From: Candidatus Altiarchaeales archaeon
GTDB lineage: Archaea; Altiarchaeota; Altiarchaeia; IMC4; QMZM01
Assembly: GCA_023252215.1 (NCBI GenBank)
Contig: JAHEXG010000002.1
Location: 16,315 to 80,314 of the forward strand
Length of the DNA stretch: 64,000 nt
Reading direction: 5' to 3'
Of this stretch, positions 2,521-59,543 are shown piece by piece. A model generated the notes under the pieces. The model ran no database searches and was not told the DNA's origin. It saw nothing but the letters and a program-made list of their open reading frames with translations. The number at the start of each line of letters is the position of its first letter. Positions within the stretch are counted from its first letter, which is position 1. Both the position numbers and the translations under genes were made by a program.

Positions 2521-2740
2521 AACGCATACCATCGATCGTGTCTGCTGTTTGTCGTTATCAGGACGCGGCCTGCGCAGGTATTTTTCTCAGGCGTATATCT
2601 CCCATAGAGTAAATGTGTCTTTCCTTGGTTACCCGATGCACGGCATGATACGCCATCTTCGACTGATTTTCAGTCTAATCTGATTTATCTGATTAATATT
2701 TATACTCTGAATACCCATATTATTCCAAGAGGTATTAAAA

Positions 2741-3004
2741 ATGGCAAAAAAAACAGTAGAATGCTGTTCCACATGCTGCAAAGTGGAAGCGCTCGTATCC
2801 GTGGACGAACGGGGCCAGATGGTCCTGCCAAAGGGCGTAAGAGAAAAGATGGACGTGAAACCCGGGGATAAATTGTCCCTTGTGAGCCTGAGCTGCGGAG
2901 GAAAGGTCAGTTGTCTCGCACTCGTCAAGGCAGAGGATCTCTCACAGATGGCAAGCAATTTCCTCGGCCCGGTGTTGAAAGATCTGGAAGGAAACAAAAA
3001 ATGA
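2741..3004 (+). CDS. Small AbrB/MazE/SpoVT-type (swapped-hairpin) DNA-binding protein with N-terminal CC-x2-CC cysteine cluster; putative regulator of the downstream ars operon
   Basis: 87 aa. ECCSTCC followed by VSVDERGQMVLPKGVREKMDVKPGDKLSL, an AbrB-like motif. GAGGT 7 nt upstream of ATG. Stop overlaps arsM start (ATGA). Confidence 0.6.
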   Translation: MAKKTVECCSTCCKVEALVSVDERGQMVLPKGVREKMDVKPGDKLSLVSLSCGGKVSCLALVKAEDLSQMASNFLGPVLKDLEGNKK

Positions 3005-3819
3005 AAAAAGAAGAGATCAAGGAAAAGGTAAGGGAAAGATATGGAAAATTCGCAAAACAAGGAACATCGTGCTGCGGGAACGGCTGCGGCTGCGCGGACA
3101 ATTCCGCAGAAAATATGAGCAAGTTGGTCGGTTATTCGGATGAAGATATCGGATCCGTGCCAGAAGGATCAAACCTTGGACTAGGCTGCGGTAACCCGAT
3201 CGCTCTGGCTTCTTTGAAGGAAGGTGAAACAGTCCTCGACCTTGGATCGGGCGCTGGCTTCGACTGCTTTCTTGCGGCAAAGAAGGTCGGGAAAAAAGGG
3301 AAAGTGGTCGGCGTGGACATGACTCCGGAGATGCTGAAGCGGGCTAGGGAAAACGCATCGAAGGGCGGTTATAAGAACGTCGAATTCAGGGAAGGGGAGA
3401 TCGAAGCGCTTCCGGTCGAGGATAATTCCATCGATGCCGTGATCTCTAATTGCGTGATCAATCTCTCGCCCGATAAGGAGCAAGTCTTCAGGGAGATGTA
3501 CCGGGTCCTCAAAAAGGGAGGCCGGTTCATGGTCTCTGATATCACGCTCGCAAAAGATCTTCCAAAAGAATTGCGCAACTCGATTGCCGCGTACGTCGGC
3601 TGCATTGCAGGCGCGATAACCAGGGAGGAGTACCTCTCGGCGATAAAGAAAGCAGGATTCTCGGACGTAAAAATCGTGAAAGAGGAGCCTTTCCCCTTGG
3701 ATGCCGTGGACGATCCTTCCATAAAAGACATATTCGACAAACTGGGGATGAGTAAAGAAGAGCTCTTAAAGGCCGCACCATCGGTCGTAGGCTTAAAGGT
3801 GCGGGGCATAAAGGCGTGA
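3001..3819 (+). CDS. arsM: Arsenite S-adenosylmethionine methyltransferase-like (ArsM/UbiE-type SAM methyltransferase with conserved cysteines)
   Basis: SAM motif VLDLGSGAGFD. ArsM-type Cys clusters CCGNGCGC and GLGCGNP. ORF-track start 2911 is an over-extension; ATG at 3001 is coupled to the upstream gene. Confidence 0.75.
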   Translation: MKKEEIKEKVRERYGKFAKQGTSCCGNGCGCADNSAENMSKLVGYSDEDIGSVPEGSNLGLGCGNPIALASLKEGETVLDLGSGAGFDCFLAAKKVGKKGKVVGVDMTPEMLKRARENASKGGYKNVEFREGEIEALPVEDNSIDAVISNCVINLSPDKEQVFREMYRVLKKGGRFMVSDITLAKDLPKELRNSIAAYVGCIAGAITREEYLSAIKKAGFSDVKIVKEEPFPLDAVDDPSIKDIFDKLGMSKEELLKAAPSVVGLKVRGIKA

Positions 3820-3830
3820 GGGGATACAAG

Positions 3831-4409
3831 ATGAAACGTTCTCTTCCGGCGCAAACGATATTGCTCCCTTCTCCCGTGCTCATAATCGGAACATACGGCC
3901 CCGACGGCAGGCCTAACATAATGACTGCCGCCTGGGGAGGAATATCATCAAGCAAACCGCCGTGCATCAGCGTATCTCTCAGGGAGGCAACGCTCAGCTA
4001 TCACAACATCAAAGAGGCCGGCGCATTCACCGTGAATATTCCCTCAGAAAAGTATTACAAGGAAGCGGACTACGCAGGCATGGTATCGGGAAGAGAATGC
4101 GACAAATTCAAGGAGACCCGCCTCACTGCGATAAAGAGCAAACTAGTCAACGCCCCGATGGTGAAAGAATTTCCCTACGCGCTCGAATGCAAGCTGATAA
4201 AGGAGATAGGTCTGGGCCTGCATACGATGTTCATCGGAGAAATTGTGGGAATGTTAGCCGATAGCGAGGTTCTTAATCCAAACCAGGTCCCGGACATCGA
4301 GAAGGTGCGACCAATTCTGTTCGGCTCATTCGGCAGCATGGCGTACTATAAAATCGGCGACAAATTAGGCGATGCGTTCTCCGTTGGAAACGAATTACGA
4401 AGGGAATAA
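3831..4409 (+). CDS. Flavin reductase-like FMN-binding split-barrel protein
   Basis: Short sequence similarity to flavin reductase domain proteins (GTYGPDGRPNIMTAAWGG...). GAGGGG 7 nt upstream of ATG 3831. Immediately follows arsM. Confidence 0.65.
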   Translation: MKRSLPAQTILLPSPVLIIGTYGPDGRPNIMTAAWGGISSSKPPCISVSLREATLSYHNIKEAGAFTVNIPSEKYYKEADYAGMVSGRECDKFKETRLTAIKSKLVNAPMVKEFPYALECKLIKEIGLGLHTMFIGEIVGMLADSEVLNPNQVPDIEKVRPILFGSFGSMAYYKIGDKLGDAFSVGNELRRE

Positions 4410-8533: not shown

Positions 8534-8671
8534 TGCCGAGGGCGGGACTTGAACCCACGACTTCCACGTTTCTCCGCTCCTTTTGTGGCCTTTTGAGTAC
8601 CAATTCAATTTTGTACCCTGTCGGGTACGGGCTTATGAGCGTGGCACTCTAACCAGCTGAGCTACCTCGGC
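8534..8671 (-). tRNA. tRNA-Met(CAU) (elongator or Ile2-type) with about 64-nt intron after position 37
   Basis: Manual fold of the reverse complement gives acceptor GCCGAGG/CCUCGGC, D-arm GCUC-AGCUGGUUA-GAGU, anticodon stem CCACG, loop CUCAUA[intron]A, T-arm GUGGG-UUCAAGU-CCCGC, discriminator A. No CCA encoded. Confidence 0.7.
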
Positions 8672-9022: not shown

Positions 9023-9095
9023 GCCCTGATAGTGTAGCGGCCTATCATGCAAGCCTGTCGAGTTTGCGACTCGGGTTCGAATCCCGATCGGGGCG
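9023..9095 (+). tRNA. tRNA-Asp(GUC)
   Basis: 73 nt. Acceptor GCCCUGA/UCGGGGC, anticodon loop CUGUCGA, T-loop UUCGAAU, discriminator G. No intron. Confidence 0.85.
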
Positions 9096-9167
9096 CTTAT
9101 TTCTTTTTTATAACTGTAGGTATTGTCATTGAATTTTTATTCTTTGAATACGTTATGTGTATAATAG

Positions 9168-59110: not shown

Positions 59111-59543
59111 GGAAGAACTCAAAAGCGAAATAGACGGCAAGACCATAAGCTATTGCTTCAGCTGCGGCATGTGTACCGGAGGCTGTCCCTCGGCCCGCCT
59201 GAACGAAAAATACAATCCCAGAAGGATACTCCACCGCGCAGTCATAGAAGGAAAAATCGAGAACGACATCTGGCTCTGCACCAACTGCTACACATGCCAG
59301 GAACGCTGCCCCACAAAGACCAAAGTCGCGGACATTATCAGCTTCATGCGCAGGATATACGTCAAAGAAAAAGGCATACCCGAATTCATAAAACCCCTGG
59401 TTACGAATTTGCAGAACTGCGGATTCACTGCCCCCATAGGGGAACTGGAAAACAAGAGACGCGAGCGGATGGGACTTCCCCCGATGAAGACAAACGACGA
59501 AATAAGAAAGATAATAGAGAAGACGGGAGGCGGCGTAAAATGA
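59100..59543 (+). CDS. hdrC: Heterodisulfide reductase subunit C-like (two 4Fe-4S motifs)
   Basis: CFSCGMCTGGCP and CTNCYTCQERCP. Confidence 0.75.
   Translation: MDLREELKSEIDGKTISYCFSCGMCTGGCPSARLNEKYNPRRILHRAVIEGKIENDIWLCTNCYTCQERCPTKTKVADIISFMRRIYVKEKGIPEFIKPLVTNLQNCGFTAPIGELENKRRERMGLPPMKTNDEIRKIIEKTGGGVK

Follow-up and report, generated by a model that had tools for sequence, protein, structure and literature searches.

A cysteine-rich AbrB-type protein of the HgcC family as a candidate metal(loid)-responsive regulator of an archaeal arsM operon

Introduction

The locus described here has its closest counterparts in the ArsR/SmtB repressors, in the DNA-binding proteins of the AbrB fold, in ArsD, and in the HgcC proteins encoded beside the mercury methylation genes hgcA and hgcB. 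It lies in a 64,000-nucleotide (nt) stretch of DNA from a Candidatus Altiarchaeales archaeon (assembly GCA_023252215.1, contig JAHEXG010000002.1, positions 16,315 to 80,314), hereafter the window, and consists of a gene for a cysteine-rich protein of 87 amino acids (aa), the arsenite methyltransferase gene arsM and a flavin-reductase-like gene. We report that the 87-aa protein falls by profile match within the HgcC family, that arsM and not hgcAB is the main partner of this family, and that its members share an array of short repeats over their promoters.

The regulatory logic that we propose for this operon is like that of ArsR/SmtB proteins, where a small autoregulated repressor is encoded by the first gene of the operon and is released by a soft metal(loid), and regulators of both types are found before ars and hgcAB genes. 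An ArsR site is made up of some three cysteine thiolates, two of them adjacent or nearly so in the sequence. The two types differ in fold and in operator: ArsR/SmtB proteins are winged helix-turn-helix proteins with a single imperfect inverted repeat as operator, whereas HgcC is predicted to be a swapped-hairpin beta-barrel, an unrelated fold, and goes with phased boxes of five base pairs (bp) of the sequence TCWGA. In domain and predicted fold HgcC matches AbrB, SpoVT, MazE, Sso7c4 and MraZ, the last of which recognises direct repeats about one helical turn apart. We know of no conserved cysteine triad and no metal(loid) sensing among these proteins. HgcC has neither a toxin partner nor a GAF or oligomerisation domain at its C-terminus such as SpoVT and AbrB have; it ends instead in one conserved helix whose LGP motif is invariant. 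ArsD, a small protein of ars operons that binds As(III) through a vicinal cysteine pair and a nearby third cysteine, has a thioredoxin-like fold, partners the ArsA ATPase and serves both as a metallochaperone and as a weak ars repressor; no sequence or fold similarity of HgcC to ArsD was detected with Pfam, NCBIfam or Foldseek.

Earlier accounts of the HgcC family come from mercury methylation. In 14 contigs, and in 8 of the 31 methylators confirmed as such, most of them archaea, Zhang et al. 2023 found hgcA to be immediately preceded by a gene annotated as PrlF, MazE or AbrB; they treated this gene as a toxin-antitoxin-like putative regulator of hgcAB, in a description that makes no mention of cysteines, operators or promoters (PMC10349881). 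A 2026 paper citing that study also refers to a toxin-antitoxin system. Beside this 'toxin-antitoxin-like' gene of archaea, the literature on hgcAB regulation offers an ArsR-like regulator in one bacterium, Pseudodesulfovibrio mercurii ND132, which is cited in PMC10349881. The AbrB-ArsM pair is not listed by Makarova 2009, and no link of the HgcC family to arsM was found in the searchable literature. The window protein shares with the copies at hgcA the family, the size, the AbrB core, the cysteines and the promoter boxes, but differs from them in its cargo, which is arsM and not hgcAB.

The 87-aa protein, its family and its cysteines

The original prediction for this DNA was of three genes: one for an 87-aa protein that joins an ECCSTCC cluster to an AbrB/MazE motif, an ArsM-like gene coupled to it by an ATGA overlap, and a flavin reductase-like gene. 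Coordinates and hidden Markov models (HMMs) bear this layout out, with all three open reading frames (ORFs) on the forward strand (Table 1) and the hgcC stop codon TGA (3002-3004) lying over the arsM start codon ATG (3001-3003). The 87-aa protein, MAKKTVECCSTCCKVEALVSVDERGQMVLPKGVREKMDVKPGDKLSLVSLSCGGKVSCLALVKAEDLSQMASNFLGPVLKDLEGNKK, whose N-terminal part is MAKKTVECCSTCCKVEALVSVDERGQMVLPK, has cysteines at residues 8, 9, 12, 13, 52 and 58, and it matches PF04014 (MazE_antitoxin/SpoVT-AbrB) at 31.6 bits (cutoff 24.7) and the AbrB family model TIGR01439 at 37.7 bits (cutoff 28.3). The NCBIfam equivalog model NF040962, "HgcAB-associated protein HgcC", aligns from model position 1 to 70 with residues 12-81 at 106.9 bits against a cutoff of 70 (E 3.4e-31), and by this match the protein is a member of an already named family and not an unseen type of protein. 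The family comprises more than 2,200 clusters at 90% identity, and 353 clusters, all of 65-160 aa, at 50% identity and E ≤ 1e-10. Pfam and NCBIfam scans of the 87-aa protein gave no match to the winged helix-turn-helix of ArsR (PF01022, NF033788); the protein may work like ArsR but belongs outside ArsR/SmtB.

An AlphaFold2 (AF2) model, computed from a 27-sequence alignment with a predicted local distance difference test score (pLDDT) of 76, has two short strands, a helix (residues 31-37), a hairpin (45-52 and 55-63) and a C-terminal helix (64-84). In this layout an N-terminal tail with C8, C9, C12 and C13 precedes a beta-beta-alpha-beta-beta core of about residues 15-63, which holds C52 and C58. 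The best Foldseek matches in the PDB are all DNA binders of the SpoVT/AbrB type, namely SpoVT (2w1t), AbrB-N (1z0r, 1yfb and 2k1n), Sso7c4 (2l66), C68 (3o27) and MazE (2mru), with probabilities of 0.63-1.0, root-mean-square deviations of 2-5 Å over about 50 residues and E-values of 0.03-0.8 that are weak because the domain is tiny. HMMs and structure prediction together support an AbrB/SpoVT swapped-hairpin fold for the protein, and with it the DNA-binding fold that had been expected of it.

Conservation singles out three of the six cysteines. Invariant in our alignment (A1) are C12, C13 and C58, the segment DxRGQMVLPK..R, GDKL and LGP. Among 198 distinct HgcC members, 189 carry CC directly before strand 1 (positions 12-13), 195 carry a cysteine in strand 4, which occurs as CC in 156, and 186 have both features; an additional upstream cysteine is present in 182, and the number of cysteines per protein is four to eight. 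The clade of the window protein has S57-C58 in strand 4 plus the extra C52. The vicinal cysteines first noticed in this one protein are thus conserved family-wide, and C12, C13 and C58 are near-invariant across the HgcC family. The combination of a vicinal cysteine pair and a distal cysteine is the one known from S3 sites for As(III) in ArsR proteins and from sites that bind Hg(II).

The second ORF, of 272 aa, matches the arsenite methyltransferase model NF008823 at 356.2 bits (cutoff 263) and has a class I S-adenosylmethionine (SAM)-binding domain (PF13847, Methyltransf_31, 155 bits); comparison with the solved structures 5evj, 4fr0 and 4kw7 gives E-values from 4e-38 to 2e-32. Its motifs include CCGNGCGC (C24, C25, C29 and C31), GLGCGNP (C63), SNCVINL (C151) and VGCIAGA (C201), and C63, C151 and C201 align with the cysteines of GCG, SNCV and C(L/I)GGA in 4kw7 and 5evj. 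The protein hence has an N-terminal cysteine as well as the equivalents of C72, C174 and C224 of CmArsM, the catalytic set that an ArsM should show in an alignment. In 60 ArsMs linked to hgcC, C63, C151 and C201 are invariant, and C24, C25 and C31 near the N-terminus, the candidates for the equivalent of C44, are kept in 51-55. By these alignments the 272-aa product is a bona fide ArsM, and As(III) methylation is predicted for it.

arsM is the main partner of the family

A scan of species-representative genomes gave at least 585 HgcC relatives, the best 80 of which were examined, with 75 informative loci. A second scan, of metagenomes, was queried with an alignment of hgcA-linked copies to counter query bias; it gave at least 374 matches, and the best 80 of these were examined, with 69 informative. 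In the genome sample arsM lies directly downstream of hgcC at 60 of 75 loci, hgcA at 12 and another gene at 3, and the metagenome sample is divided in much the same way (55, 11 and 3 of 69). When the samples are pooled, arsM follows hgcC at 115 of 144 loci and hgcA at 23, giving one or the other at 138 of 144. We conclude that arsM is the main partner of the HgcC family, with about 80% of loci, and hgcAB a partner in about 16%; since this holds in both samples, the family name is misleading. The association with hgcA and hgcB that the name implies is found neither in the 64 kb of the window nor in about 80% of the members sampled.

In the genome sample the hgcA-linked loci were identified by the cap-helix motif NVWCAAGK, and the ArsM homologues linked to hgcC are 52-68% identical to that of the window. 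The arsM start lies between -4 and +275 nt from the hgcC stop at 59 of these loci and 864 nt from it at the remaining one (L029; numbers with the prefix L denote the loci compared). The 4-nt overlap of the window is kept at L001, L082, L083, L044, L047, L051 and L063, and most bacterial loci have gaps of 10-100 nt and no overlap. The closest relative among the best 80 genome loci is L001, at 82% identity. Because an identical three-gene locus is present in an independent assembly (L081) and the hgcC-arsM pair is seen again at well over 100 other loci, the arrangement in the window is not a chance feature.

Carriers include Methanothrix, Methanoperedens, Methanomicrobiales and Bathyarchaeota, and also Dehalococcoidia, Syntrophales, Thermodesulfobacteriota and Nitrospirota; the family precedes arsenic or mercury methylation genes in many anaerobes of both domains. 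In a low-resolution neighbor-joining tree of the roughly 75-aa core, hgcA-linked copies are interspersed with arsM-linked ones, and separate clades for the two are not supported. The two partners can also be combined. Locus L063 (5914-9328) is an operon of hgcC, arsM, a gene for a DUF2284/MbdU-like metal-binding protein, hgcA and hgcB, as assigned by NCBIfam models, which places arsenic and mercury methylation genes behind a single hgcC promoter, and the same models assign L014 as hgcC-hgcA-hgcB. A protein that carries the NCBI label HgcC (P0098; L088:4001-5118, GCA_042582345.1) is encoded directly upstream of an ArsM-like methyltransferase gene, between the genes for Phe-tRNA and Pro-tRNA synthetase, with no hgcAB within 4 kb.

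In the window itself, the hgcA cap-helix motif N[VI]WC[AS][AGS]GK is absent from the six-frame translation of all 64 kb, which rules out hgcA/hgcB in the window as an account of the HgcC match, and the only 4Fe-4S motifs returned by a screen for HgcB lie at about 59.1-59.3 kb. No other ars genes are found among the neighbours of the operon.

Some loci depart from the common arrangement. At L064 (3355-4173) an orphan hgcC is divergent from an ArsR/SmtB gene with an ECCVCE motif, whose product scores 82.5 bits on NF033788. At L080 (5950-8303) an hgcC with YC for CC in strand 4 precedes a gene for a 681-aa SufS-like cysteine desulfurase. A 'Candidatus Altiarchaeia' metagenome-assembled genome (MAG) keeps the downstream synteny of the window, with a near-identical ABC-2 permease, GNAT and LPG_synthase_C (L002:5990-8210); no start codon that could serve its hgcC copy precedes the CC motif, neither arsM nor the flavin reductase gene is there, and the locus appears to be a degenerated module.

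TCWGA boxes overlap the promoters

Upstream of hgcC in the window are five TCWGA boxes, two of which form the only occurrence of TCWGA-N4-TCWGA in the 64 kb (2679-2692). The same signal recurs across the family. In the upstream regions of 80 loci the most enriched 6-mer is TCTGAT/ATCAGA, observed 128 times against 9.4 expected, with CTGATT/AATCAG also among the most enriched, and their core is the quasi-palindrome TCWGA. Under a relaxed definition of the box there are 297 sites upstream of these loci compared with 81 ± 9 in dinucleotide shuffles, at least two boxes at 78 of the 80 loci and at least three at 68, and the spacing from box to box has a sharp peak at 9 nt and further peaks at 18 and 27 nt. 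Strict pairs, defined as TCWGA-N3-5-TCWGA, number 51 in 19.5 kb of upstream DNA (2.62 per kb) versus 6 in the other 793 kb (0.008 per kb), a more than 300-fold enrichment upstream of HgcC members. Box density is equal at arsM-linked and hgcA-linked loci.

The boxes sit on the core promoter in both domains. Counted from the -35 hexamer of bacterial loci with TTGACA, they are found near +10, +27, +36 and +45 and cover the spacer, the -10 element and the transcription start; at archaeal loci, counted from a TTTAAATA-type TATA box, they are found near -20 and -10 and at +5 to +9. Binding at these positions would occlude the core promoter, because the boxes bracket the TATA box in archaea and cover spacer, -10 and start in bacteria. 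Since the archaeal boxes flank the TATA box, we read them as DNA signals and not as RNA; an Rfam search at the gathering threshold, made with an upstream RNA element in mind, gives only two tRNAs in the window. A scan of the region for sigma-70 promoters carries no information, the DNA being archaeal. The inverted repeat that had been suggested at 2690-2740 did not materialise beyond a 9-nt AT-rich pair with 89% complementarity, and the signal of this region is instead the box array at 2662-2710.

A duplicated promoter bears on how the boxes are used. In a Syntrophales MAG (JALNVY010000023), 3.3 kb downstream of hgcC-hgcAB, there is a second copy of promoter and TCWGA boxes (L014:9375-9510); of hgcC itself only 10 codons (MVKEDQKKEE*) are left behind it, and arsM comes next. 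The boxes of this copy account for one of the six strict pairs counted outside upstream DNA. The operator was kept here although the adjacent regulator gene was lost, as expected of a trans-acting regulator that serves both units.

A candidate repressor released by a thiophilic metal(loid)

Taken with the predicted fold and the synteny, the conserved array over the promoter makes the proposed regulatory role much firmer, and the 87-aa protein is very probably a DNA-binding regulator of its own operon. We infer that it represses rather than activates, which we consider likely. In the mechanism that we propose, HgcC dimers would bind the 9-bp-phased TCWGA boxes, probably oligomerised through the conserved C-terminal helix so as to span three to five boxes. 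Protein bound there would occlude TBP/TFB or RNA polymerase and keep the operon repressed. The thiolates of C12, C13 and C58, perhaps joined by the variable cysteine upstream, would bind a thiophilic metal(loid), and binding would lower the affinity of HgcC for DNA and derepress ArsM. The prime candidate for the ligand is As(III) at the window operon and Hg(II) at hgcAB-linked copies; as the family also occurs at hgcAB loci, either of these two, or thiophilic metal(loid)s as a group, may be what HgcC binds. Whether the metal(loid) binds the HgcC cysteines directly we regard as evenly balanced. On balance we favour the combined reading, in which the HgcC-family protein autoregulates hgcC-arsM, and with it the flavin reductase gene, as a repressor released by a thiophilic metal(loid). 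The idea of an AbrB-fold, As(III)-sensing repressor of a distinct type, from which this work started, is upheld as to fold, arsM operon, cysteines and operator; its protein proved to belong to a family that already had a name, and As(III) is its candidate ligand.

Several points weigh against this reading. In classical AbrB proteins DNA binding follows no sharp consensus, which makes a crisp 5-bp box atypical for the fold, and the TCWGA boxes could in principle be bound by another factor. Confidence in the model is low for the cysteine-rich N-terminal tail (pLDDT about 51), and modelling was of the monomer, so that the relative placement of C12, C13 and C58 across subunits lies outside the model. 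Coupling through ATGA would also be expected if the two proteins were needed in fixed proportion, as with a chaperone or a subunit. Both context samples are the top 80 of larger sets, and the figure of 80% for arsM is to that extent approximate. Finally, what the literature holds on the function of the HgcC family is a suggestion based on synteny.

We consider two other explanations, both of them unlikely. In the first, HgcC is a metal(loid) chaperone that takes up As(III) or Hg(II) with its vicinal thiols and passes it to ArsM or HgcAB, and DNA binding is absent or secondary. The overlap of hgcC and arsM, kept in close relatives and in some bacteria, would fit equimolar production of the two proteins, HgcC is found with two methyltransferases of unrelated structure whose one common trait is a thiophilic substrate, and its flexible cysteine-rich tail resembles the vicinal-cysteine sites found in ArsD and at the C-terminus of HgcB. 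ArsD is itself a protein for which a chaperone and a DNA-binding role were originally debated. A chaperone, however, has no need for conserved operator-like boxes over promoters in two domains, nor for an operator that persists without an adjacent hgcC, as at L014; the segment with which the AbrB fold contacts DNA (DERGQMVLPK..R) does not vary, and at most bacterial loci a gap takes the place of the overlap. HgcC may also combine the roles of chaperone and regulator.

The second explanation, to which we give about the same low probability, leaves HgcC a DNA-binding regulator and assigns its cysteines to the sensing of redox or thiol stress, or to a structural Zn or Fe-S cluster. Judged by their record titles, all carriers appear to be anaerobic, thiol switches and Fe-S sensors are common in anaerobes, and each protein has four to eight cysteines. 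Against this, the genes downstream are almost exclusively those of arsenic or mercury methylation, which points to a metal(loid) signal, and the alignment shows a conserved vicinal CC with a distal C(C), the pattern of an S3 site for As(III) or Hg(II) and not the CxxC...CxxC arrangement typical of zinc or cluster ligation. That HgcC is an ordinary type II antitoxin (MazE/PrlF) which happens to adjoin arsM, as the name 'antitoxin PrlF' given to many members by the Joint Genome Institute, the toxin-antitoxin system of Zhang 2023 (PMC10349881) and the 2026 paper, and weak PrlF matches (PF15937, 17.5 bits; NF007429, 21.8 bits) might suggest, is effectively refuted by the synteny with arsM and hgcA, the more so as those scores are far under their cutoffs (32 and 125), no toxin gene (MazF, YhaV, PIN or Doc) adjoins hgcC in the window, where the upstream ORFs are without Pfam match, and the invariant cysteines and a family-specific HMM set HgcC apart.

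Beyond the window operon, a wider proposal is that HgcC constitutes a new structural class of metal(loid) sensor, with an AbrB fold and a Cys3 site, in which one universal 9-bp-phased TCWGA operator switches arsM and hgcAB in anaerobic Bacteria and Archaea. We put this forward tentatively, with a confidence slightly short of even. As far as the searchable literature shows, the predominance of arsM, the cysteine triad and the cross-domain TCWGA operator are undescribed.

Implications for arsenic and mercury methylation

What controls the methylation of arsenic and mercury by microbes of anoxic soils and sediments is not settled, and the question has practical weight because methylated arsenic and methylmercury accumulate in rice. 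Anaerobes with a functional ArsM often do not methylate arsenic in pure culture, according to the literature, and tight repression by HgcC could help to explain such non-methylating cultures. The locus and its relatives offer a testable regulator, an operator and a candidate sensing site that are apparently common to both pathways and to two domains. If the proposal is true, an AbrB-fold metal(loid) sensor would be a new structural class of metalloregulator, the regulation of arsenic and mercury methylation would be mechanistically linked, the published labels 'toxin-antitoxin' and 'HgcAB-associated' would be misnomers, and a compact sensor-operator pair would be available for biosensors. Our results suggest that the database names for the HgcC family need revision.

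The flavin reductase gene and other features of the window

The third ORF of the operon matches PF01613 (Flavin_Reduct) at 104.9 bits. Its start is ATG 3831 or GTG 3816, and public NCBI/ENA calls use the 192-aa ATG form. Because it follows arsM by 11 nt and is preceded by a GGGGA Shine-Dalgarno-like sequence, it is probably co-transcribed with hgcC-arsM. A tblastn search found a flavin reductase homologue at none of the 80 genome hgcC loci, and the close relatives L084-L087 have none. Beside hgcC-arsM the gene was seen only in the window, at L081 and at L082, and at L083 the contig ends within a truncated, unassigned ORF at this position. The flavin reductase gene is thus a lineage-specific add-on outside the conserved module; its absence from the 80 loci and the variability among close relatives rule it out as a conserved member, and a conserved association with ars genes, as of ArsH-type or other ars-linked flavoproteins, is likewise not seen. 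The suggestion that it supplies reductant for arsenic chemistry has adjacency as its sole basis.

The closest relatives of the flavin-reductase type, L082 and L083, have a gene for a 118-aa glyoxalase/Ble-like protein divergent from hgcC (L082:3399-3755, L083:796-1152). Near hgcC at L082 there are also heavy-metal-associated (HMA) and DsbD_TM genes (L082:6637-8264), and these surroundings suggest a small metal-handling island.

Table 1. Coordinates of genes and promoter features at the hgcC-arsM locus of the window
Feature	Position	Strand	Basis or remark
hgcC-family gene	2741..3004	+	87-aa Cys-rich SpoVT/AbrB-type putative repressor; NF040962, PF04014, AF2, Foldseek, conservation
arsM	3001..3819	+	272-aa predicted SAM-dependent arsenite methyltransferase; NF008823, PDB matches, catalytic Cys
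Flavin-reductase-like gene	3831..4409	+	PF01613; 192 aa from ATG 3831; lineage-specific accessory
Shine-Dalgarno-like GAGGT	2729..2733	+	7 nt before hgcC ATG; sequence, putative function
Candidate archaeal TATA box TTTATA	2699..2704	+	between boxes 4 and 5, 37 nt upstream of start codon; putative function
Operator-like array, five TCWGA boxes	2662..2710		8-10 bp (or 2x9 bp) register
Box 1 ACTGA	2662-2666		sequence
Box 2 TCAGT	2670-2674		sequence
Box 3 TCTGA	2679-2683		sequence
Box 4 TCTGA	2688-2692		sequence
Box 5 TCTGA	2706-2710		sequence

The neighbours of the operon in the window are genes for a geranylgeranyl reductase, two ORFs without Pfam match, an ABC-2 transporter, a GNAT protein and an LPG_synthase_C protein. 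The archaeal relatives of the locus and a tRNA gene with a probable intron, described below, point to an archaeon as the source of this DNA. The 4Fe-4S motifs mentioned above belong to an ORF at about 59154-59330 on the forward strand, which has two ferredoxin-type CxxCxxCxxxCP motifs and is unrelated to the hgcC operon. The two tRNAs found with Rfam are a normal tRNA-Asp at 9023-9096 on the forward strand and a 138-nt match at 8534-8671 on the reverse strand, which extends over the full model, implies an intron and is missed by ARAGORN in bacterial mode.

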